Part shown: one piece after another, positions 15,907 to 54,361 of the stretch
Layout of the letters: each line of letters starts with the position of its first letter
Numbering within the stretch: the first letter of the stretch is position 1
Assembly (NCBI GenBank): GCA_041659445.1
Contig: JBAZYG010000001.1
Coordinates: 381,624 to 445,623, forward strand
Origin: Candidatus Pacearchaeota archaeon
GTDB lineage: Archaea > Nanobdellota > Nanobdellia > Pacearchaeales > GW2011-AR1
Reading direction: 5' to 3'
DNA length: 64,000 bases
The notes under the pieces: generated by a model
What the model was told of the DNA's origin: nothing
Database searches by the model: none
What the model saw: only the letters and a program-made list of their open reading frames with translations
Position numbers and translations under genes: made by a program

Positions 15907-17412
15907 ATGAAAGATAAAAGAGGCCTTTCAGACGTTATAACAACTATTTTGTTAATTTTATTAGTTGTTATAGCTTTGGGAATTGTTTCTGTTATTCTTT
16001 TTTCCTTTGCAAAAAATAATTCAGAAAAAGCAGAATTAAAAGTTTCTTTGCTAAGTGAAAATTTTAAAATAAAAAAAGTATTAATTGATTCACAGGACCC
16101 TTCAAAAATTAATATTACTTTTTGTTGTGCTACAGGTTCATATCAAATTAAAAAACAAACAGAAGAAAATAATACAGAATTAGATATTGGACTAGTCATA
16201 GATCGTTCTGGAAGTATGAGACAAAGTGGATGGACAATTAATTTAGACTCAAGTCTTATTTCTTCGTATAATTTTTATAATTTAAATGTCCCAAGAAATT
16301 CTTATAGTTCTTCACAAACTTTTAATGTAAATTCTAGCAACACACGAATTGCAATTTTGTTGATGTGGGATAAAAAACAAGGATATAATGGTTCTGAAGG
16401 TTCAGAATTTTCACTTAATTTAAGAAGACCTTCAGGAGAATGGATTTTTGGTTCAGGTCAACCAAACACTGGGGGAAAAGTTGATCCCCCAGATTCTCTG
16501 GGAAACAGCAACGAATATTTTAATGGAATTTCTTCAAAACCCCAAATAATTTATATTGAAAACCCACAAGTAGGAAATTGGGAAGTTAAAGTATGGGGTT
16601 GGAATTTAAGACCGTCGACAAATCCTCCAAATTCCCAAAATGTAAATATTTCAGTTTTCAAGGGAAATGCTCAACAAATTTCTAAAAACCCAACAATTAT
16701 TTCAATCGACGCTGCTAAAAATTCTTCAAAAAGTTTTGTTAATTCTAAAAAAGATGATGAACAAATAAATTATGTTGTTTTTGGAAATTATGGAGAATTA
16801 AAACAAACTTTAACATCAAATCTTACAAAATTAATAAATGCTATTGACAACACTGGAATGGAAGGAGGCACAGCAATACAAACAGGAATTGAAACTGCTG
16901 AAGAAGATTTACTAAATAATGGTAGAGAAAATTCTGAAAAAATAATGGTAATCTTAACAGATGGACAAAATGACGCAGGCTCTGAAATTGTTATTCAAAC
17001 AGCACAAGAAGTCAAAGACAATGGAATTATTATTTTTACAATTGGTTTAACAGGATTTGTAGACGAGAACATGCTTAAACAAGTTGCAACTAAACCAGAA
17101 TATTACAATTATGCACCTGATGCTTCGAATTTAAATTTTATATTTGAAGAAGTAAGAAGAGATATCACAAATTTATTTGAAAAAAATGAAAAATTATCAG
17201 ATTATTTTCTTTTAATTTTTTATAACAATACAAACAGCTATGAATACAAACTTGACGACCCTTCTTTAAAACCACTTCAAACAAAAGAATATTTTTTTGA
17301 TTTAACTGGAAAATTGACAAATGTCACAAGAATAGAAATTTATCCTGTTATTTTAGCAAAAAATGGAAAAGAAGTAATTGGACAACTTCTTCAAACATTT
17401 GAGATTGCATAA
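15907..17412 (+). CDS. pilin-like protein with an archaeal class III signal peptide and a von Willebrand factor A (vWA) domain
   Basis: MKDKRGLSDVITTILLILLVVIALGIVSVILF (KRG plus hydrophobic segment); MIDAS-like DIGLVIDRSGSM (DxSxS), later TDG and GIIIFTIGL segments typical of a vWA fold. Confidence 0.6.
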   Translation: MKDKRGLSDVITTILLILLVVIALGIVSVILFSFAKNNSEKAELKVSLLSENFKIKKVLIDSQDPSKINITFCCATGSYQIKKQTEENNTELDIGLVIDRSGSMRQSGWTINLDSSLISSYNFYNLNVPRNSYSSSQTFNVNSSNTRIAILLMWDKKQGYNGSEGSEFSLNLRRPSGEWIFGSGQPNTGGKVDPPDSLGNSNEYFNGISSKPQIIYIENPQVGNWEVKVWGWNLRPSTNPPNSQNVNISVFKGNAQQISKNPTIISIDAAKNSSKSFVNSKKDDEQINYVVFGNYGELKQTLTSNLTKLINAIDNTGMEGGTAIQTGIETAEEDLLNNGRENSEKIMVILTDGQNDAGSEIVIQTAQEVKDNGIIIFTIGLTGFVDENMLKQVATKPEYYNYAPDASNLNFIFEEVRRDITNLFEKNEKLSDYFLLIFYNNTNSYEYKLDDPSLKPLQTKEYFFDLTGKLTNVTRIEIYPVILAKNGKEVIGQLLQTFEIA

Positions 17413-20138: not shown

Positions 20139-21806
20139 TTAATTTTCGTCACAATTTGTTTCATACATTATTCCATCTGAAAAAGCCATCCAACAATTTC
20201 CAACTGAATAATTTCCTGTCAAACCAATATTATTTTGAGAAATTAAATTTCCTGAGAAAGAAATATCTCCGTTAACATCTAATTCACTTTGAGGAGTTGT
20301 TGTTCCAATTCCAACTTTTCCACCCATAATTGCCATTGTGTTTGCTTGACTTACAATAGTTCCTGATTGATCATTTAACCCTATTCCTACTGAATTACTT
20401 CCTGAAACTTCTATTCCTTTACCCATTGCGACAGAGTAAGGTCCTGATGCAATTGTATTTCTTCCAAAAGATGTTGAAGCTTCTCCAGATGAAACAGTCA
20501 CCAAACCCATTGCTGTTGAACCATAACCTGAAGAAATAGTTCCAGAGCCCATTGCTGTTGAAGCAGTTTCAGATGCAGTTGTAGAATATCCCATTGCTGT
20601 TGAATAATCTCCTAAAGCTTTTGTGTAACCCCCAGTTGACATTGAACTATAACCTGAAGATTCAGTGTATTCTCCCATTGCTGTTGAATAATATTGCGAA
20701 GATTCTGAACCATAACCTGTTGCTGTTGAATAATATCCTGATGAAATTGTTGCACCACCCATTGCAATTGCACCAATTTCAGAGGCTAATGTGCTTGGTC
20801 CTATTGCTGTTGAATATAAATTTGAAGCATTTGCATAATAACCCATAGACATTGAATGCTTATTTGGATTAATTAAAAGAGTATTTTCACCAACATAAAA
20901 ATTTCCTGTAAATTTCCCATCACCGATGACAGTCAATGCATTTTGGGGATTGTTTGTTTTTATTCCAACATTTCCATTATTATTTACAACAAATGCCTTT
21001 GAAGAATTTGCTCCTGGACTAAAATACAAACTTTCATCTCCTGCAGATGTAAAATCTATTTTAAAGATTTCTTTATTTCCAGAACGAATATTAAAACTAT
21101 CTGCTAAAATAAATGCAAGATATCCACCATTGTAATCACCCAAAATAAAATCATTTGTAGAATGAATACTTCCATTAACATCTAAATTATATTGTGGGTT
21201 GCTTGTTCCAATACCAACATTTCCCCCCATAATTGCCATTGTATTTGCTTGAGAAACATTCAAATTATTTTGATCATTCAATGCGATAGCAAAACTATAA
21301 TCTCCTCCTGCAATAATTTCTCTACCCATTGCTGTTGACAAAAACCCAGAAGCTGTTGTTGCAAAACCAGTCGCTGTTGAAGAAGCTCCTGAAGATTTTG
21401 TTAAATCACCTAATGCTATTGAAGAATCTCCTGAAGCATTTGCATAATGTCCTAATGCTATTGAAGAATCTCCTGAAGAGAATGCATGATTCCCAACAGC
21501 TACTGAAGAAGGCCCTAAAGCTGTTGATGAATATCCTAAAGCAACAGAATATAATCCCGAAGCTGTTGAGGTTCCTGATGAAATTGAATAGGTATTTGTA
21601 TTAACAAAAAAATCAGTTCCTCCAACACTGAAATTGTAATCTCCTAAAACAACATTATGATTTGAGCCAACGTAAGGAACATAACTTGAATTATAATTTG
21701 ATGAAATTAATTTATTATTTGTCTTTGCTAAAGAAAAAGAAGATAAACATAAAATCAAGATTAAAACAAAAACCATTCCAAAAAAATATTTATTTTTACA
21801 TTTCAT
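20139..21806 (-). CDS. secreted adhesin-like protein with Hep_Hag/YadA-head-type repeats and tail-fibre-like NVGIGT motifs
   Basis: Signal peptide MKCKNKYFFGMVFVLILILCLSSFSLA; repeated SSIALGHYANASGDSSIALG / SVALGYSSTALGPSSVAVG units (N/S-S-[IV]-A-[LV]-G periodicity); twice-repeated MAIMGG[NK]VGIGT..PQ..LDVNG motif. Confidence 0.6.
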   Translation of the reverse strand: MKCKNKYFFGMVFVLILILCLSSFSLAKTNNKLISSNYNSSYVPYVGSNHNVVLGDYNFSVGGTDFFVNTNTYSISSGTSTASGLYSVALGYSSTALGPSSVAVGNHAFSSGDSSIALGHYANASGDSSIALGDLTKSSGASSTATGFATTASGFLSTAMGREIIAGGDYSFAIALNDQNNLNVSQANTMAIMGGNVGIGTSNPQYNLDVNGSIHSTNDFILGDYNGGYLAFILADSFNIRSGNKEIFKIDFTSAGDESLYFSPGANSSKAFVVNNNGNVGIKTNNPQNALTVIGDGKFTGNFYVGENTLLINPNKHSMSMGYYANASNLYSTAIGPSTLASEIGAIAMGGATISSGYYSTATGYGSESSQYYSTAMGEYTESSGYSSMSTGGYTKALGDYSTAMGYSTTASETASTAMGSGTISSGYGSTAMGLVTVSSGEASTSFGRNTIASGPYSVAMGKGIEVSGSNSVGIGLNDQSGTIVSQANTMAIMGGKVGIGTTTPQSELDVNGDISFSGNLISQNNIGLTGNYSVGNCWMAFSDGIMYETNCDEN

Positions 21807-31168: not shown

Positions 31169-31753
31169 CTAAAGAATTTGCCCATTAAAATTAGAATTAA
31201 AATCTTTAACAATTTGATTATCTTCATCAAAAAAATCAACTATAATAATTGCTTTTTCATAAGCACGATAATACCTTTTATCAGTAACTTTCACATAATT
31301 TACTTTGGATGCAACAAACCTCACTTGCCGATCATTATCGTCTTCAAAAAGTCCGCCTTCTTTTAGGGAATCAATTATGTTCTTTGTATAGTTATCTACA
31401 TCCCTATCTTTGTGGGTATTAACTAAAAGATATTTTATTAAAATTTGTATTGGTTTGTTTTTTATTTCTTCGCAGATTGATTTTGTATTTTTTGATTTTT
31501 TTAATTTATCAACAATTATTTTTCTCATTCTCTTTCCTGCTTTTGTTTGAAAACTTGCAGGATATGCATCTGGCATTAACCACCAAAGGTGTTTCCCCTT
31601 TGGACAAGAATCAAAAGAATCTTTATGTATTATTGAAATTCCTCTTGAAGAAACTCCTTTTTTGAGGATATTCATCTTAACTTTTTCACTTCTTCTTTTT
31701 GGAATTTTTACATTGGGAAAATTACTCATAACTAATTCTCTCATAGTTACCAT
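31169..31753 (-). CDS. RusA-like Holliday-junction resolvase (phage-type endodeoxyribonuclease)
   Basis: THKDRDVDNYTKNIIDSLKEGGLFEDDNDRQV parallels the RusA core [31 protein letters not shown] (D-x-D-N...K...D...DD.QV); start is 1 nt after the upstream HNH gene stop. Confidence 0.55.
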   Translation of the reverse strand: MVTMRELVMSNFPNVKIPKRRSEKVKMNILKKGVSSRGISIIHKDSFDSCPKGKHLWWLMPDAYPASFQTKAGKRMRKIIVDKLKKSKNTKSICEEIKNKPIQILIKYLLVNTHKDRDVDNYTKNIIDSLKEGGLFEDDNDRQVRFVASKVNYVKVTDKRYYRAYEKAIIIVDFFDEDNQIVKDFNSNFNGQIL

Positions 31754-31754
31754 T

Positions 31755-32441
31755 TTATCTAATTTTCATGTGTGTTTTTTTGTGACAAACCCCACAGAGA
31801 ACGACTAAATTATTCACTTGATTATTTGAAGAATCTTCATCTTTATGATGAATGTGAAGACCTTCTGTTTTCCCACAAACAGCACATTCATTATTAAATT
31901 TGCCAAAGACCATTTCCTTTTCATCATTTGTTAAAAATTTTCTTTTAGCCTTAACTTTCCCATAAATCTTTTTCTCAGCTTCTTCTCTTATTTTTCTTTT
32001 TTCTTGTCTTTCCAAAATTTTATTTGATTCTATTTTTATAAGTTCATCACTTACAAGTTCATTTATTGCTTTTTCAATATTATAATCTTTATTTATTACC
32101 TTCTTTATCACATTTTCTTTATTAAAATAGGAAATTCTTTGCTTAGATCTTTTTAGCTTCAAATATTCTTTTGCCTTAACAACTAATTGTTCTGGAGCAA
32201 ATTTATCTTCTTGATGCCAATCTAAATGAGGCTCTTTTGATTCATTAGAAAGTTTGATGTAATTAATTATCTCTTTAATTGCTTTCATTTCTTTTTTACT
32301 TCTTTGGTTTCTTTCTTTTATTTCTATTTCTTTTAAATAACAAGATTTGCATTTACCAGAAAACATATAACTATACTCTTCAAACTTTGTATAACATACT
32401 GAACAATTATAAAACCCCATTAAATAAAAAAGAAAGAACAA
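31755..32441 (-). CDS. zinc-ribbon plus HNH endonuclease protein
   Basis: N-terminal CSVCYTKF...CKSCY (Cys4 ribbon); C-terminal CAVCGKTEGLHIHHKDEDSSNNQVNNLVVLCGVCHKKTH (HNH with a Cys4 zinc site); K/E-rich middle. Confidence 0.6.
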   Translation of the reverse strand: MFFLFYLMGFYNCSVCYTKFEEYSYMFSGKCKSCYLKEIEIKERNQRSKKEMKAIKEIINYIKLSNESKEPHLDWHQEDKFAPEQLVVKAKEYLKLKRSKQRISYFNKENVIKKVINKDYNIEKAINELVSDELIKIESNKILERQEKRKIREEAEKKIYGKVKAKRKFLTNDEKEMVFGKFNNECAVCGKTEGLHIHHKDEDSSNNQVNNLVVLCGVCHKKTHMKIR

Positions 32442-36422: not shown

Positions 36423-36731
36423 ATGAACAACATTGATGAATTTTTGGAAGATGGTTTTAAAATAAGAGAATATGAAAACAATTTATCAAAAATTATATCT
36501 GAAATAAAAAGAGAATGTGAAGTTCAAAAAGAAGAAGATTTTGATTACAAAGAGCATATAGAAATATCTGTTAACGTCTTAAAAACATTTCTAGAAGGAT
36601 ATAAAAAATTAATAGAAAAATATCCTGATTCAAAATTTATTAAAAATAGAAAAAAATATTTATATTTTTTTGCAAAGAAAAACTTACCTAAAGAAGTATA
36701 TAAAGAGGTTTATGAAAATGAACAACATTGA
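36423..36731 (+). CDS. small protein, copy 1 of a tandemly triplicated family (starts MNNIDE, ends YENEQH)
   Basis: 102 aa; paralogous to the next two genes along its length. Confidence 0.5.
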   Translation: MNNIDEFLEDGFKIREYENNLSKIISEIKRECEVQKEEDFDYKEHIEISVNVLKTFLEGYKKLIEKYPDSKFIKNRKKYLYFFAKKNLPKEVYKEVYENEQH

Positions 36732-37014
36732 TGAAATCTTAGAGGATGGTAGAAAAATTTATTTATTGATGGAAAATTCATTATATTTTGCTGAATTAAT
36801 AATGAATGAAAGGAAATATATTGAAATTCTTCCTAAGGAAAAAGAAGGTTATAGAATGACCTTAAAAAATAACTGGAAAAGATTTCAGGAATTTTCAGAA
36901 AAATACCCTAATTCTGAATTTGTTAAGGAAACAGTTGAAAGAATTCTTAATTCAGCGAAAGAAGATTTACCAGAAGAAGTATACAAGGAGATTTATGAAA
37001 ATGAACAACATTGA
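36718..37014 (+). CDS. small protein, copy 2 of the triplicated family; start trimmed to MNNIDE
   Basis: Track ORF 36670..37014 begins in the upstream copy; the nucleotide string tatgaaaatgaacaacattgatgaa encodes both YENEQH* of copy 1 and (MK)MNNIDE of copy 2 in shifted frames. Confidence 0.5.
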   Translation: MNNIDEILEDGRKIYLLMENSLYFAELIMNERKYIEILPKEKEGYRMTLKNNWKRFQEFSEKYPNSEFVKETVERILNSAKEDLPEEVYKEIYENEQH

Positions 37015-37291
37015 TGAAATCTTGAAAGATGGAATTAGTGCTCATTATATTGGAAGGGATTCTTTAGAAGATATTTCAAAAATAAGAGAATACTCAAAAT
37101 TTCCAGATAAATTATGGAAAATCGGAGATTACAAAAAAAGATTAGTTAGTTATTGGAAAGGTTTGCAAGATTTAGCTAAAAAATACCCAGATTCTGAAGT
37201 TATTAAAGAACAAACTGAAATAATTCTTAACTCGGCAAAAGAATATCTACCCGAAAATATATATAAAGAAATTTATGAATCAGAAAAATAA
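37001..37291 (+). CDS. small protein, copy 3 of the triplicated family; start trimmed to MNNIDE
   Basis: Same overlap architecture with copy 2; C-terminus diverged (YESEK). Confidence 0.5.
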   Translation: MNNIDEILKDGISAHYIGRDSLEDISKIREYSKFPDKLWKIGDYKKRLVSYWKGLQDLAKKYPDSEVIKEQTEIILNSAKEYLPENIYKEIYESEK

Positions 37292-37599: not shown

Positions 37600-37920
37600 A
37601 TGAGTTTAGAAAACATTCAAAAAGATGTAGACGAATGGTGTTCTCAATTTGACCCGCCTTATTTCAATGCCTTGAAACAATTAGACAAACTAAGAGAAGA
37701 AACAGAAGAAGTTGGTGAAATTTTAGAAAAAGTATGTGGAACAAATAAAGAAGAATATGAAAATTATAAAAAAGATTTAGGTGGAGAACTAGCAGATGTC
37801 CTTTTTGTTGTAGCTTGTATTGCGAACAGAGAAAAGATAAATCTTCAAAAAGAATGGAAGATAATGATGAAAGAAAGAAGATATGGAAGAGATAATAATC
37901 GGTTTAAAAGAAAACAATAA
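37600..37920 (+). CDS. MazG-like nucleoside triphosphate pyrophosphohydrolase (all-alpha NTP-PPase)
   Basis: LREETEEVGEILEK ... LGGELADVLFVVACIA matches the MazG/HisE-type EExxE...ELxDxL pattern; 106 aa. Confidence 0.55.
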   Translation: MSLENIQKDVDEWCSQFDPPYFNALKQLDKLREETEEVGEILEKVCGTNKEEYENYKKDLGGELADVLFVVACIANREKINLQKEWKIMMKERRYGRDNNRFKRKQ

Positions 37921-37960
37921 TTCTTATAATTTTTATTTTAGATAAGTTTTTAAGTTCATA

Positions 37961-37980
37961 TTTATTTGAAAATTTATAAT
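37961..37980 (+). promoter_or_regulatory. putative archaeal TATA/BRE-like element upstream of tRNA-Leu
   Basis: tttatttgaaaatttataat lies about 12-30 nt upstream of the tRNA 5' end; weak because AT-rich sequence is everywhere. Confidence 0.25.
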
Positions 37981-37991
37981 TTGCAATTTAT

Positions 37992-38075
37992 GCGGGGGTG
38001 CCGGAGTGGTCAAACGGGCTGGACTTAAGATCCAGTAGCTTAGTGCTTGCGCAGGTCCGAATCCTGTCCCTCGCA
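37992..38075 (+). tRNA. tRNA-Leu (anticodon TAA), type II
   Basis: Acceptor GCGGGGG/CCCTCGC, anticodon stem CTGGA/TCCAG with loop CTTAAGA, long variable arm TAGCTTAGTGCTTGC, T-arm GCAGG-TCCGAAT-CCTGT, discriminator A. Confidence 0.8.
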
Positions 38076-38123
38076 TTTTGATAGGATGAGAACCAAGCCT
38101 AAAAAAATATTTAGATTTTTGCC

Positions 38124-38150
38124 CGCAGGTCCGAATCCTGTCCCTCGCAT
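38124..38150 (+). repeat. 27-nt perfect direct repeat of the tRNA-Leu 3' end (T-arm plus acceptor 3' strand)
   Basis: cgcaggtccgaatcctgtccctcgcat occurs at 38050..38076 (inside the tRNA) and again at 38124..38150, 47 bp downstream. Confidence 0.75.
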
Positions 38151-38151
38151 A

Positions 38152-38223
38152 GCCATTACGCATAGGCTTCGCGAGACACTGAATGAAAAAGCCATTACCC
38201 ATAGGCTTCGCGAGACACTGAAT
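38152..38223 (+). repeat. tandem repeat, 2 x 33 nt separated by gaaaaa (one mismatch)
   Basis: gccattacGcataggcttcgcgagacactgaat / gccattacCcataggcttcgcgagacactgaat; contains the palindromic core tcgcga; followed by two copies of aattgcctctg at about 38237 and 38295. Confidence 0.7.
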
Positions 38224-38362
38224 AACGATTTCTTTAAATTGCCTCTGATTGAAATCGCAAATAATACTTAAACTCTTAAACAAAGTTGTTCAATTGCCTC
38301 TGGCAACAACAAAAAAAATTAATCACATAAATATTTTTAAATCCAAATGCAACTAAATTTTT

Positions 38363-38680
38363 ATGGAAAATATAAATGATTTAATTTTTTATAAAATAAA
38401 AAGTAAAATAATTCCAAACAGAAATCCAAAAAAACATTTTTTTATTTTAGAAAATCCCGAAGCTAAAACAGAATTAGAAGATTTTGTGCTTTCTGGACAA
38501 TTCTGCTCTCAATTTGATTTTGAAACAGATAGCTCAAACAATTTATACGGAGTTTATCTTCCAAAAGGCTCAGAATCAGGATTAATTTATTTAAAAGAAT
38601 TTAAATCAGAAATAGGTGATTTTGTTTTTATTCAGACTCCTTTAAATTATTTAGATAACTCTCTTGATTTGAAAAATTAA
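38363..38680 (+). CDS. hypothetical protein (105 aa)
   Basis: Complete ORF; no motif recognised. Confidence 0.35.
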   Translation: MENINDLIFYKIKSKIIPNRNPKKHFFILENPEAKTELEDFVLSGQFCSQFDFETDSSNNLYGVYLPKGSESGLIYLKEFKSEIGDFVFIQTPLNYLDNSLDLKN

Positions 38681-38725
38681 ATCCAAAATATTTTTATTTA
38701 CTAGATTCTTGAATAATTAATAAAA

Positions 38726-39484
38726 ATGAAAAAAATTTATTTATACGGGATTTTAATTCTTGTTTTAGTTGTAATTGCTTTGAATTATGGAAAGTTAGAT
38801 AATTTTGTAATTAAACAACTTTCTGAAAATGAAAATTATGAAACAGGAGTTGTTGAAAGAATTGTTGATGGAGACACAATAAAAATAAACAATGAAAGTG
38901 TTCGATTACTTGGAATAAATTGTCCTGAAAAAGGTGAGAAATATTATTCAGAGGCAAAAGAGTTTTTAGGAAAAGAAATCTTAAACGAATCCGTTGAAAT
39001 TCATTTTGGAGAAGATAAATATGATTTATACGGCAGAAAATTAGGTTATATATTTTACAAAAACCAAAACATAAATTCTTTAGTTGTCAAAAACGGGTTT
39101 GCAAATCCTTATTTTCCTTCAGGAAAAAATTCTTATTATCCTGAATTTTTTTCTTCTTGGAATGAATGTTTAGAGAATGAATTGAACTTGTGTGAAAAAT
39201 CACAAGACAAATGTTCAGAATGTATTATTTTAAAAGAATGGGGTACAAAAAACCAATTGGTGATTTTAAAAAATACTTGTGATTTTTCGTGTGACTTAAC
39301 AGGTTGGACAATAAAAGATGAAGGAAGGAAGAAATTCGTTTTTGAAAAAACAATTTTGGAAAAAAACTCAATTATTGAAATTTCTGCACAAGATTTTAAT
39401 GAAACTTATGTTTGGACTAGTTCTGGTGATACTATTTATATAAGAGACAACCAAGGCAAGCTTGTTTTATGGGAAAACTACTAA
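38726..39484 (+). CDS. secreted staphylococcal-nuclease (SNase/thermonuclease)-like protein with a C-terminal lamin-tail (LTD) domain
   Basis: N-terminal TM/signal; GVVERIVDGDTIKINNESVRLLGINCPEKGE...DKYDLYGRKLGYIF...NSLVVKNGFA follows the SNase pattern (DGDT, R-L-x-G-I-D-x-P-E, Y-G-R); C-terminal DLTGWTIKDEGRKKFVFEKTILEKNSIIEIS is LTD-like. Confidence 0.65.
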   Translation: MKKIYLYGILILVLVVIALNYGKLDNFVIKQLSENENYETGVVERIVDGDTIKINNESVRLLGINCPEKGEKYYSEAKEFLGKEILNESVEIHFGEDKYDLYGRKLGYIFYKNQNINSLVVKNGFANPYFPSGKNSYYPEFFSSWNECLENELNLCEKSQDKCSECIILKEWGTKNQLVILKNTCDFSCDLTGWTIKDEGRKKFVFEKTILEKNSIIEISAQDFNETYVWTSSGDTIYIRDNQGKLVLWENY

Positions 39485-41369: not shown

Positions 41370-42131
41370 TTATTTATTTTTCAGAATTTCTTGAATCTTG
41401 TTTTTAAAATCTTCAATATTCATTTTTTTAATGTCGCTCTCCCATAACCTAATAACTTTAAATCCTTTTTCTTGTAATTCATTTGTCCTCACATTATCTA
41501 TTTCTCTACCTAAAGGATATTTGTGCCAATAATTTCCATCAACTTCTATTATTAAATTTAAATTTGAAATTAAAATATCACATTGATAACCATGCTCAAT
41601 TTCTTTTATATATTTATGAGTAATAAATTCTATATTTAATTGCTTTAAAAAATTTTGAATTTTAATTTCTGGTTTAGAATCTTTTAAAGGAAAAATTTGT
41701 TTAATCCTTTGATTTTTAATTTTTAAGATTGTCTCTTTTGAATGATGTTTTCCAAACATAGGATGTTTTTCTCCAGAAATTTCAGGAATTTTCTTTCCTT
41801 TATTCCATACATTTTCTCCTTCAAATCTTTTCTTTTGAGAAATACTCATTTTTTTTCTTACTTCTGAACTTAATAAAGTTTTCATTAAAGATATTTTTTG
41901 TTTTTCTATTGTTTCCTTAGAAGGATGCTTTCCAGTCATCCAAGAAGGTTTACCTGTTTTTTTACCTTTATTGCTGGGAACACTACCTTTCTTAAAAATA
42001 CCTTTAAATCCACTCGGAAAATATTTTTTATATTCTTCCCCTTTTAATCCTTTATTCCAAGGTATACTGCCTTTTTTGAATTCTGTTTTTGAAGAAGAAC
42101 GTTCTCCTTTCTTGAATTTAGTATCTATCAT
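41370..42131 (-). CDS. homing-endonuclease-like protein with N-terminal NUMOD3-type DNA-binding repeats and a C-terminal Vsr/DUF559-like PD-(D/E)xK nuclease domain
   Basis: Repeats FKKGSIPWNKGLKG, FKKGSVPSNKGKK, GKHPSKETIEKQKIS, GKHHSKETILKIKNQ (the G-K-H-x-S-x-E-T-x-x-K-I motif of NUMOD3); C-terminal YQCDILISNLNLIIEVDGNYWHKYP...VIRLWESDI resembles the DUF559/Vsr endonuclease core. Confidence 0.6.
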   Translation of the reverse strand: MIDTKFKKGERSSSKTEFKKGSIPWNKGLKGEEYKKYFPSGFKGIFKKGSVPSNKGKKTGKPSWMTGKHPSKETIEKQKISLMKTLLSSEVRKKMSISQKKRFEGENVWNKGKKIPEISGEKHPMFGKHHSKETILKIKNQRIKQIFPLKDSKPEIKIQNFLKQLNIEFITHKYIKEIEHGYQCDILISNLNLIIEVDGNYWHKYPLGREIDNVRTNELQEKGFKVIRLWESDIKKMNIEDFKNKIQEILKNK

Positions 42132-42655: not shown

Positions 42656-42710
42656 CTTCCCCTTCTCCCAACATCGCAAAACTTAAATACTCAAAACATA
42701 TTGGTTTTTT

Positions 42711-42974
42711 GTAGACTAGATCGGCAGGTTAGCCCCCTGCTCATGTGCAAACGGGCTTTATGGCAGACTACGAGTGGAGTGTGATTGAGAAGTCAGGAAG
42801 TCTTTAATCTAACGTTGACGTTTTGTCCGCTTTGATCTTGTAGATGCAAAACGGGTCAGGCCTTGATCGGAGCAGCCCTAAACATGTATTAAGGTGCTTA
42901 GCGGGTCACAAAATCGAGAAGGATTAAGGGTAAGCTTTTTGGTTTTTCTTGAGCTGTCCACTTTGTCTACACTT
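42711..42974 (+). ncRNA. candidate signal recognition particle (7S/SRP) RNA
   Basis: About 260-nt island visibly GC-enriched relative to the AT-rich flanks and free of ORFs; contains GGGU-CAGG-CC-(uugauc)-GG-AGCA-GCCC, which reproduces the SRP helix-8 architecture (symmetric CAGG/AGCA loop, the SRP54 M-domain site, flanked by paired GGGU/GCCC and CC/GG); 5' GUAGAC and 3' GUCUAC ends are complementary. Confidence 0.55.
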
Positions 42975-51705: not shown

Positions 51706-52119
51706 ATGAAAACATTTGAATTTCTTGAGCATACTGCAGACATAAAAATAAAAGCTTATGGTAAAGATATAAATGAGGTTTTTAAAAATTCAGCATATGC
51801 TTTTTTAAATTTCTTAACAAATAAAAAAATTTCTGAAAAAAAATTAAAAAAAATAAAAGTTCAAGGAAAAGATTTTGAAAGTCTGCTTTACAATTTTATA
51901 GAAGAATTGATTTTTCTCCTTGATTCAGAGAACTTATTAATATCCAAAATTAAAAAATTAAAAATTGATAAAAATAAATTTAAATTGGAATCAGAAATTT
52001 ATTTTGACAAGTGTGAAAAATATTTAATAAGAAAATCAATAAAAGCAATAACTTACAATGAAATGTATATTAAAAAACAAAAAGACAAATGGATTGCACA
52101 ATTTGTTTTAGATATTTAA
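51706..52119 (+). CDS. archease (RtcB activator)
   Basis: MKTFEFLEHTADIKIKAYGKDINEVFKNSAYAF is the conserved archease N-terminus (F-x-x-L-x-H-T-A-D). Confidence 0.8.
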   Translation: MKTFEFLEHTADIKIKAYGKDINEVFKNSAYAFLNFLTNKKISEKKLKKIKVQGKDFESLLYNFIEELIFLLDSENLLISKIKKLKIDKNKFKLESEIYFDKCEKYLIRKSIKAITYNEMYIKKQKDKWIAQFVLDI

Positions 52120-52984: not shown

Positions 52985-54361
52985 ATGCAAATAAAAAAAA
53001 TTTCAAAAAACAAATATGAAATTCCTAAATCTGAAGATATGAATGTTCCAGGATTAATTTATGCCTCGGAAAAATTGATTAAAGATATTGAAAAAGATAA
53101 AACACTGAATCAAGTAAAAAATGTTGCGCAATTGCCTGGAATTGTAAAATATTCTCTTGCTCTACCAGACGCACATCAAGGTTATGGTTTTTGCATTGGT
53201 GGCGTAGCTGCTTTTGATTTAGAAAAAGGAATAATTTCTCCAGGCGGTGTTGGATATGATATTAATTGTGGGGTAAGATTGCTCAAAACAAATTTAACAA
53301 AAAAAGATATTTCAGGAAAAGAAAAAATTCTTGCTGAATTTTTGTTCAAAAAAATTCCCTCTGGGGTTGGAAGAGGAAGTAAATTTCAATTAACTTACAA
53401 ACAATTAGATGAAGTTTTGGAAAAAGGTGTAGAATATTTAATTGAAAAAAATTATGCTTCAAAAGATGATTTAAAAAATATCGAAGAAAATGGAAGAATA
53501 AAAAATGCAGATTCATCTAAAGTTTCTGAAAGAGCAAAAAAAAGAGGAATTGGTCAACTTGGGACACTTGGTGCTGGAAATCACTTTTTGGAAATCCAAA
53601 TTGTAGATAATATCTTTGATGATAAAATTGCAAAGAAATTTGGATTGTTCAAGAATCAAATTGTTATAATGTTGCATTGTGGTTCTCGAGGATTAGGACA
53701 TCAAGTTGCCTCAGATTATATTAAATTAATGGAAGAAAAATATGATTTTGAAAATTTACCAGATAGAGAATTGATAAATGCTCCAATAAAAAGTAAACTT
53801 GGACAAGATTATCTTCAAGCAATGAATTGCGCTGCGAATTTTGCTTTTGCAAATAGACAAATAATTTCTCATTGGACAAAAGAAGTTTTTTCAGAAATTT
53901 TTCCAAATTCAAAAGTTGAAACTCTTTATGATGTTTGCCATAATATTGCAAAAATTGAAGAGTATAATTTAAACGGAAAAAAACAAAAGTTATGTGTTCA
54001 TAGAAAAGGAGCTACTCGAAGTTTTGAAAATCAGCCTGTTTTAATTCCAGGAACAATGGGAACTTCAAGTTATGTTCTGATTGGAAATAAAAAATCCCAA
54101 GATTTAACTTTTTCAAGTGTTGCACATGGTGCAGGAAGATTAAAAAGTAGAATTAGTGCAATGAAAATGGTAAAAGGAAAATTATTAAAAGAAAAATTAC
54201 AAAATAAAAAAATAATTATTCAAACAGATAACATTTCATCTCTTGCAGAAGAAGCTCCTGAAGCTTACAAAAATGTCGACGATGTTGTAGAAATAATTTC
54301 TGAAGAAGGCCTAGCAAAAAAAGTTGCACAATTAAGACCTTTAATCGTAATTAAAGGCTAG
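52985..54361 (+). CDS. rtcB: RNA-splicing ligase RtcB (3'-phosphate/5'-hydroxyl tRNA ligase)
   Basis: LPDAHQGYGFCIGGVAAFD, GGVGYDINCGVRLL, GAGNHFLEIQ, HCGSRGLGHQVA, PGTMGT, HGAGR: the conserved metal-binding and GTP-site blocks of RtcB. Confidence 0.85.
   Translation: MQIKKISKNKYEIPKSEDMNVPGLIYASEKLIKDIEKDKTLNQVKNVAQLPGIVKYSLALPDAHQGYGFCIGGVAAFDLEKGIISPGGVGYDINCGVRLLKTNLTKKDISGKEKILAEFLFKKIPSGVGRGSKFQLTYKQLDEVLEKGVEYLIEKNYASKDDLKNIEENGRIKNADSSKVSERAKKRGIGQLGTLGAGNHFLEIQIVDNIFDDKIAKKFGLFKNQIVIMLHCGSRGLGHQVASDYIKLMEEKYDFENLPDRELINAPIKSKLGQDYLQAMNCAANFAFANRQIISHWTKEVFSEIFPNSKVETLYDVCHNIAKIEEYNLNGKKQKLCVHRKGATRSFENQPVLIPGTMGTSSYVLIGNKKSQDLTFSSVAHGAGRLKSRISAMKMVKGKLLKEKLQNKKIIIQTDNISSLAEEAPEAYKNVDDVVEIISEEGLAKKVAQLRPLIVIKG

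Follow-up and report, generated by a model that had tools for sequence, protein, structure and literature searches.

Organization of the tRNA-Leu(TAA) locus

We analysed a 64,000-nt stretch of contig JBAZYG010000001.1 (hereafter the window), which has a guanine plus cytosine (GC) content of about 27% and whose protein matches assign the host to a Candidatus Pacearchaeota metagenome-assembled genome (MAG), and we focused on the DNA that follows its intact tRNA-Leu(TAA) gene (Table 1). The 3' end of this gene is repeated 47 nt downstream as an exact 27-mer, CGCAGGTCCGAATCCTGTCCCTCGCAT, which comprises the last 26 nt of the tRNA plus one flanking T. Both copies named in a preliminary description of this DNA were located, and none of 100 shuffles contained any match at ≤3 mismatches. 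The same description had placed a tandem repeat of two 33-nt units directly after the second copy; two units do lie there, the first beginning 1 nt past the copy, and we corrected their length to 34 nt (AGCCATTAC[G/C]CATAGGCTTCGCGAGACACTGAAT) and their spacing to 5 nt. Within the unit, a 28-nt core was delimited (GCCATTACsCATAGGCTTCGCGAGACAC). The segment 38124-38225 reaches a GC content of ~50%, against 27% for the genome, and stands out as tRNAs do. Tandem Repeats Finder missed this 1.9-copy, 39-nt array, which was detected by a repeat finder. Two downstream copies of the 11-mer AATTGCCTCTG, likewise noticed earlier, were found at 38237 and 38292; they extend to a 14-mer with one mismatch, and the pair taken alone is borderline against chance. 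No further copy of the 27-mer or of the 34-mer was found in the window, including by a profile search for the 34-mer on both strands.

Table 1 Features at and downstream of the tRNA-Leu(TAA) gene (window coordinates)
Feature	Position	Strand	Basis or remark
tRNA-Leu(TAA), intact gene	37992-38075	+	Rfam tRNA, 54.5 bits; ARAGORN
Direct repeat, copy 1 (T-arm, 3' acceptor strand, discriminator and 1 nt)	38050-38076	+	belongs to the functional tRNA
V47, AT-rich 47-nt insert separating both repeat copies	38077-38123	+	
Direct repeat, copy 2 (exact, 27 nt)	38124-38150	+	rare C55 T-loop included
Two 34-nt units	38151-38184 and 38190-38223	+	period 39, one mismatch
Two TT[A/C]AATTGCCTCTG copies, 55 nt between them	38234-38247 and 38289-38302	+	
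105-aa open reading frame within the inserted stretch	38363-38680	+	no homologue, no Pfam match
Putative second inserted stretch, ~560 nt (34-mers, 14-mers, ORFan)	38151-38712	+	right boundary approximate
SNase+LTD secreted nuclease gene	38726-39484	+	Pfam; synteny with relatives

Loci and contigs of relatives, designated here by L-numbers, were fetched to a total of 1.54 Mb of DNA. An independently assembled ENA contig (L001, MEGAHIT) was 99.9% identical to the window over 4.5 kb and identical across the repeat region, and a Logan contig from another run (L003) contained both 34-mers. Because the independent assembly has the identical structure, the repeat is not an assembly duplication, which had been an earlier worry; the repeat feature is real.

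Homologues of the modules in other genomes

V47 has a homologue at the equivalent position in a distant metagenome contig, L205, in which the tRNA-Leu gene is followed by a 58-nt spacer, a second copy of a 25-mer, 10 nt and the SNase gene, the second copy leading into TTTAATTAAG-ATG of the SNase homologue. The L205 spacer aligns with V47 and shares with it the blocks GArCCAAGCCT and ATTTTTG, the former of which occurs only in V47 and the L205 spacer within all fetched DNA. The proteins of L205 are 42-47% identical to those of the window, and at this distance a neutral spacer should not remain alignable.

The 34-mer has its homologues in L163 (41% GC), which contains three copies that are 27/28 identical to the 28-nt core (GCCATTACGCATAGGCyTCGCGAGACAC). 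One copy occupies a 53-nt insert flanked by 18-nt direct repeats of the tRNA-Leu 3' end; the other two, with a period of 44, occupy a ~91-nt insert flanked by 17-nt direct repeats of the tRNA-Arg(CCT) 3' end. The orientation of the core in L163 is inverted with respect to the window, and in both genomes the GCCATTACG end of the core adjoins the copy of the tRNA 3' segment. A comparable arrangement was observed at a tRNA-Gly (L154) and a tRNA-Ser (L189), where the same ~50-nt insert (GGTTTCGTTCGAAACTGAAATTTCGGACGACGGAGAAyGCAGTGACCCA) is flanked in each case by direct repeats of that tRNA's own 3' end. These alignments indicate that the 34-mers are not mere adjacent junk, the 28-nt core being a sequence family common to another genome, and that modules of the V47 and 34-mer types belong to families situated beside tRNA genes of other DPANN archaea.

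Two further candidate homologies of the 34-mer, to a 39-mer in L120 (p ~0.01) and to a trailer hairpin in L095/L107 (p ~0.03), were too weak to use. L120 (Pacearchaeota LejiaA_33_38) carries at 1205-1322 three perfect tandem 39-nt GC-rich units, 1 nt past its tRNA-Leu(TAA), followed by a putative DNA-3-methyladenine glycosylase gene (Tag; assigned by eye) and then by the SNase gene. The period equals the 39 nt of the window, and the sequence likeness is weak (13/16 in the core).

Recurrence of tRNA 3'-end copies

A pattern scan of species-representative genomes yielded 120 tRNA-Leu(TAA) loci, and a scan of JGI metagenomes with a T-arm/acceptor 25-mer yielded 119 additional loci. A same-strand copy of the last 14 nt of the tRNA was present at 16 of 108 distinct metagenome tRNA-Leu loci (~15%), and opposite-strand copies of these 14 nt at none of the 108. 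The copy lay 71-237 nt downstream at 15 of the 16 loci, with inserts of 47-128 nt between the repeats, and 1176 nt downstream at the remaining one, where a putative nucleotidyltransferase gene (recognized by eye from its NTase motif) lies in between. The repeats spanned 13-26 nt to the left of the last base of the tRNA and 0-13 nt beyond it. Across all fetched loci, annotated with ARAGORN, the pattern was observed in 18 of 267 distinct tRNAs (14 Leu, 2 Met, 1 Gly and 1 Ser); no opposite-strand and three upstream copies were found among the 267. The flanking repeat was always direct, always had the sequence of the tRNA at which the insert lay and always ended at the tRNA's last base.

Among the species representatives, partial self-copies were found in MAGs of Pacearchaeota, Woesearchaeota and unclassified archaea; in methanogen-type loci, only L024, with a complete tRNA present twice in tandem, and L020 and L070, with matches in the variable arm, were comparable. 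At four loci (L163, L176, L179 and L013) the distal copy is interrupted within the T-loop, and these interrupted copies look like proto-introns.

Related structures were also seen on the 5' side of tRNA genes. L052 contains a mirror image of the pattern, with two tandem 107-nt units that each start with the first 21 nt of the tRNA; upstream of the gene in L091 lies a 45-nt repeat containing the first 13 nt of the tRNA, and upstream in L013 lie partial copies of tRNA positions 1-11 and 18-60. Separately, a conserved GC-rich element of 50-80 nt (GAGCCGGTTTCGCTCGGGCTCGCGCGCAGTAGTTTTCGC...) directly follows tRNA-Leu in L107, L095, L078 and L026 and precedes a putative rpl18e (by eye). Its hairpin stem co-varies between genomes, it is absent from the sister loci L127, L073, L060, L103 and L096, and in L107 a degenerate tRNA-end copy borders it.

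Empty sites and lineage-specific DNA

A neighbourhood of ArgRS, TrxR, a 74-aa gene, tRNA-Leu and SNase is common to several of the fetched loci. In L052, L205, L207, L209 and L211 an SNase-like gene lies 10-70 nt past the tRNA or its second copy. The SNase gene, a conserved downstream neighbour of tRNA-Leu(TAA) in relatives, marks where the native flank resumes, a short distance ahead of its start codon. In L184, the closest relative found (ArgRS 66% and TrxR 57% identical to the window), tRNA-Leu is followed by ordinary AT-rich flank and the repeat is absent. A further empty site is provided by L097 in comparison with L013 and L022, whose insert of 130-190 nt is closed by a 17-18-nt copy of the tRNA end. 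Because the SNase gene of relatives adjoins the tRNA and L184 is devoid of the repeat, the comparison indicates that the DNA from 38077 to ~38712 is lineage-specific inserted DNA. Five relatives' contigs (L032, L062, L066, L181 and L193) stop 1-3 nt past the 3' end of tRNA-Leu, far more commonly than by chance, which suggests population heterogeneity exactly at this junction. The comparison of the tRNA-Leu locus across relatives proposed in the preliminary description thus revealed a variable insertion that is missing from the closest relative found, and its suggestion of an insertion hotspot was borne out by the distance to the SNase gene, by L184 and by the contig ends. Synteny based on MazG homologues was also tried and set aside (best homologue 58% identical, gene order different).

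An archaeal signal recognition particle (SRP) RNA was located at 42709-42972 on the plus strand (81 bits, E = 1.4e-18); with a score below the Rfam gathering score of 96.5, it was missed by the default Rfam scan of the window. As this RNA is essential, its position argues against a large element reaching far to the right.

The tRNA itself bears on the origin of the repeat. Its T-loop, TCCGAAT, has a C at position 55 instead of the near-universal U, an allele found in 4 of 241 relatives (L095, L096 and two metagenome loci, of which L144 was checked), and both repeat copies in the window carry it. L095 belongs to another tRNA-Leu family, yet its T-arm is 21/21 identical to that of the window. 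The acceptor stem of the window tRNA contains a G4-U69 wobble; the corresponding sequence in relatives is GCGAGGG or CCCCCGC. The shared C55 would fit a duplication of resident sequence, not an imported foreign tRNA end.

Coding content and the search for an enzyme

Pfam was used to scan 65 open reading frames (ORFs) of the window, essentially all of those of ≥90 aa. No integrase, transposase, Cas1 or PolB, and no Phage_integrase or other recombinase match, was obtained among these 65. The scan identified SNase+LTD, LVIVD and NUMOD3+DUF559, in agreement with the flanking genes named in the preliminary description, together with HNH, GmrSD, a type-IV-pilus-like locus, RtcB, archease and housekeeping genes; a RusA match was weak (22.3 bits, cut-off 22.8). 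When a tyrosine recombinase was used as phmmer query, the 292 ORFs that follow tRNA-Leu in the fetched loci gave matches in non-DPANN loci only, and tyrosine recombinases adjoin tRNA-Leu in Hadarchaeota L123 and Methanolapillus L037. The 105-aa ORF of the inserted stretch matched only itself among 5.8 billion proteins and is presumed to be cargo.

Several free-standing nuclease genes are dispersed across the window: NUMOD3+DUF559 (41370-42131, minus strand), HNH (31755-32420, minus), the weak RusA (31169-31753, minus) and GmrSD+HNH (1382-2578, plus). Any of these four could be a candidate for trans-acting cleavage. Archease and the tRNA-splicing ligase RtcB are encoded close together (51706-52119 and 52985-54361), and therefore the host probably splices tRNA introns.

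On the minus strand, the 14-mer pair at 38234-38302 reads ..LLPEAIEQL.. and ..SEAI*. In L091 the AATTGCCTCTG 11-mer forms part of the C-terminal codons (..FAEAI..) of a gene in convergent orientation that appears, by eye, to encode phosphoribosyl pyrophosphate (PRPP) synthase. With low confidence, the AATTGCCTCTG copies may be C-terminal remnants of a convergent PRPP-synthase gene, which occupies this position in some relatives, and they may thus be gene remnants rather than binding sites.

A proposed model of stacked miniature insertions

With moderate confidence, we favour a reading in which the locus carries the stacked footprints of miniature insertion elements that encode no recombinase and duplicate the 3' segment of their target tRNA. 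Two mobile-DNA insertions at the 3' end of tRNA-Leu(TAA) would fill 38077 to ~38712. The first (event A) would have brought in a 47-nt miniature element together with the second copy of the last 27 nt of the tRNA, as in L205, and the tRNA gene would have survived because the proximal copy remains attached to the tRNA body. The second (event B) would have added ~560 nt at the very point where the distal copy ends on its 3' side, with the two 34-nt units as subterminal repeats at its tRNA-side end and the orphan gene carried along. The recognition point would likely be the conserved, near-palindromic T-loop GGTTCRAATCC, with the repeat extending from the T-arm to the last base of the tRNA. Lacking a recombinase gene of their own, the elements must depend on mobilisation in trans, possibly by an enzyme that makes a staggered cut in the manner of a casposase or by one that carries out site-specific recombination at the T-loop. 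A staggered-cut, casposon-like mechanism is attractive, but Cas1 and terminal inverted repeats are absent and the repeat length is variable; T-loop site-specific recombination with an element-borne tRNA end is possible but a poor fit to the multi-tRNA cases. The analysis shows the repeats, their equivalently placed homologues, relatives with empty sites, repeats that match each target tRNA and no recombinase detected in the vicinity; mobility itself, the order of events A and B, and the enzyme are what we infer from these observations.

That one insert sequence occurs beside several tRNAs, flanked every time by repeats of the tRNA concerned, argues for miniature elements and not for a decayed provirus or plasmid bounded by attL/attR. 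Contig ends 1-3 nt after the tRNA would be expected if the junction is polymorphic in populations.

Several points weigh against the stacked-insertion reading. Neither an excised form, an empty-site read nor a second genomic copy was seen for the host genome within the 64-kb window, and profile searching on either strand of the window gave neither a terminal inverted repeat nor a right-end copy of the 34-mer, so that event B would be one-ended or truncated; no repeat flanks event B. Exact words (a 26-mer and a 24-mer of the 34-nt unit) returned no match in viral contigs, species-representative genomes or JGI metagenomes. The 26-mer and 34-mer cores were absent among 2.9 million viral contigs, V47 was not found in viral contigs either, and a degenerate block pattern had no match there. 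Repeat lengths of 13-27 nt across loci are a misfit with a single enzyme of fixed stagger, and no candidate enzyme for moving the inserts emerged. Metagenome assembly may also under-represent large polymorphic elements, biasing the sample towards small inserts.

Alternative explanations

The best surviving alternative, which we consider unlikely, is a classical attL/attR scar, close to the integration-site scar of the preliminary description: a virus or plasmid with a tyrosine integrase would have entered the T-arm of the tRNA by Campbell recombination, bringing its own tRNA 3' end, and nearly all of it would have been deleted, leaving 47 bp, with the 34-mers as arm-type binding sites that belonged either to this element or to another. 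Williams, in 2002, reportedly distinguished sublocation classes of tRNA-targeting integrases. A repeat that starts in the T-arm and stops exactly where the tRNA ends (+1 nt) is the typical identity block of such integrases, GC-rich direct repeats beside the core look like arm sites, and the recombinases adjoining tRNA-Leu in L123 and L037 show this kind of neighbour; archaeal tRNA fragments left by integrated elements are documented (PMC9897764, PMC3293823), and the possible assembly bias against large polymorphic elements also works in favour of this alternative. However, neither an integrase gene nor a fragment of one was detected in the 64-kb window, and inserts of ~50-130 nt at 15 of 16 loci are an unlikely outcome of random deletion, which would have had to leave both cores untouched. 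For one insert to occur at Leu and Arg or at Gly and Ser tRNAs, each acceptor strand would have required an element variant of its own, and the rare C55 shared by both window copies also speaks against this alternative. The earlier claim of an integration scar is correct as to kind, DNA having been inserted at the T-arm/3' end of the tRNA, but not in its details: an integrase-borne element bounded by attL and attR is unsupported, as no integrase was detected among the 65 scanned ORFs and only 47 bp lie between the copies.

Improbable, in our judgement, is a functional RNA or processing module, that is, a tRNA-like 3' element or small RNA whose copy is held identical by selection, such as an RNase Z or P punctuation signal, a shared 3' tRNA piece or a guide RNA. 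The ~50% GC stretch in a 27% GC genome, the co-variation of the copy with its own tRNA between L013 and L022, the retention of the V47 module between genomes at 42-47% protein identity, the position of the L205 copy 10 nt ahead of the SNase start codon and the presence of RtcB and archease genes in the window are compatible with such a role, and the fold of the region is slightly more stable than that of shuffles (z = -2.3). Against this, Rfam matched the tRNA alone over 37900-38450 at gathering and permissive E-value thresholds (best other match 23.6 bits, cut-off 80), and folding of 38077-38340 on both strands, of the repeat units and of sub-regions gave weak or no excess structure, with the 34-mer and the L120 39-mer units folding no better than shuffles (z = +0.2 to +1.9). 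The copy is without an upstream partner for its acceptor strand, no 5' tRNA-Leu piece occurs elsewhere in the window, the module is missing from the closest relative and from most relatives, and the insert sequences are heterogeneous between loci. The small RNA suggested earlier as an alternative therefore gained no support from Rfam or folding.

Equally improbable is a local, enzyme-independent rearrangement, in which template switching or unequal recombination beside a highly transcribed tRNA would have produced the repeat together with filler DNA. The variable repeat length (13-27 nt), tandem expansions near the tRNAs of relatives (2 x 107 nt upstream in L052, arrays in L179 and L217, 3 x 39 nt in L120) and the T-arm-like microhomology GGTTCGA often held by inserts are in keeping with it, but it would leave unexplained both the near-identical filler at different tRNAs and in different genomes (window and L163, V47 and L205, L154 and L189) and the fact that the repeat invariably stops at the last base of the tRNA.

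An assembly artefact or chance repeat is excluded for practical purposes: although Logan contigs break within the repeat region, the independent MEGAHIT assembly reproduces an identical structure and a third sample reproduces part of it, the k-mers of the assemblers exceed the 27-nt repeat in length, and the chance expectation is zero matches.

Further candidates were considered. The locus does not resemble an array or mini-array of clustered regularly interspaced short palindromic repeats (CRISPR), having two 34-nt units only, 5 nt apart, as against repeats of 24-47 nt with unique spacers of similar length. On inspection by eye, we also dropped C/D-box and H/ACA small RNAs, origin-recognition boxes, a primer-binding site of retroviral type and the possibility that the 39-nt period is coding, since the defining motifs or spacing are absent. 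With regard to a split or permuted tRNA, no 5' tRNA-Leu fragment was found in the window and no bulge-helix-bulge motif in the fold of 37992-38150.

Other features of the window

The amplified small-gene array noted upstream consists of three overlapping paralogous genes of ~100 aa each (36423-37291, plus strand), which have the common C-terminal motif ..PEEVYKEIYENEQH and no Pfam match. A 555-aa protein encoded at 20139-21806 (minus strand) contains YadA-head repeats, a bacterial trimeric-adhesin domain, in this archaeal genome. At 16449-16513, inside a VWA/pilin-like ORF (15907-17412), a 65-nt segment of 51% GC contains the inverted repeat GGGGGAAAAGTTGATCCCCC.

Significance and comparison with known systems

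tRNA genes are classical landing sites of integrating viruses and plasmids. The proposal that archaeal tRNA introns, split tRNAs and tRNA fragments stem from the insertion of mobile elements is an old one with scant direct evidence behind it, and to our knowledge the mobile elements of DPANN archaea are almost unknown. A broader proposal, which we regard as possible though rather doubtful, is that the modules beside DPANN tRNA genes would form an undescribed class of miniature mobile elements with T-loop recognition, duplication from the T-loop to the last base, an enzyme acting in trans and a target that is never inactivated. If this is true, the distal copies interrupted in the T-loop (see above) would be snapshots of non-canonical tRNA introns and fragments arising. 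If the inserts are confirmed to be mobile, the loci would offer a tractable comparative system in DPANN for the origin of tRNA introns and fragments; for annotators, they call for caution, partial tRNA copies being common in these genomes. The window locus and its relatives are relevant to the proposal that tRNA fragments and non-canonical introns arose through mobile elements (PMC3293823, PMC9897764).

The attachment (att) sites of tyrosine integrases in tRNA genes (SSV-, pNOB8- and pTN3-type; bacterial islands; T-loop class) resemble the locus in their direct repeat from T-arm to 3' end, in keeping the tRNA intact and in making the tRNA an insertion hotspot, and the direct repeat of the tRNA 3' segment that marks them is 27/27 identical here. 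They differ in that no integrase was found here in cis or among the scanned window ORFs. Whereas tyrosine-integrase elements span kilobases, the inserts here measure tens to ~130 nt (47 nt between the window copies), and here the same insert occurs at different tRNAs with target-specific repeats.

Casposons of Methanosarcina, transposons with a solo Cas1, insert at the 3' end of tRNA-Leu and produce duplications that begin with the CGCA of the tRNA and measure 14 nt in some and 35 nt in others, with solo ends remaining (PMC4779613). The tRNA-Leu 3'-end target, the ..CGCA end and the long target-derived duplications are points of likeness, and the putative event B adjoins ..CTCGCA-T. Unlike casposons, the locus has no Cas1, PolB or terminal inverted repeats in the window, the repeat length is variable and the elements are miniature; the 34-mers are direct copies at one end only, with no inverted copy in the window. 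The hosts here are DPANN archaea, from which casposons are not known to have been reported (Krupovic et al. 2014, 2016).

Miniature inverted-repeat transposable elements (MITEs), which are non-autonomous, are likewise small and non-coding, form families common to loci and genomes and are presumably mobilised in trans. With respect to the multiple copies that define MITEs, homologous inserts were found at independent tRNA sites in other genomes, and no second site was found within the 64-kb window. The modules differ from MITEs in having no terminal inverted repeats (none at the V47 ends), in duplications of 13-27 nt as against 2-10 nt, and in their strict preference for the tRNA 3' end in a single orientation.

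Finally, a model for tRNA-Thr fragments in Caldiarchaeum (PMC3293823) and tRNA fragments in Thermococcaceae (PMC9897764) likewise concern partial tRNA copies beside an intact gene, attributed to the insertion of mobile elements. Those fragments flank kilobase-sized, recombinase-bearing elements, whereas the modules described here are miniature and recurrent. tRNA-targeted insertion with duplication of the 3' end is thus already known, and what is new is the recurrence of recombinase-less miniature modules in DPANN archaea.

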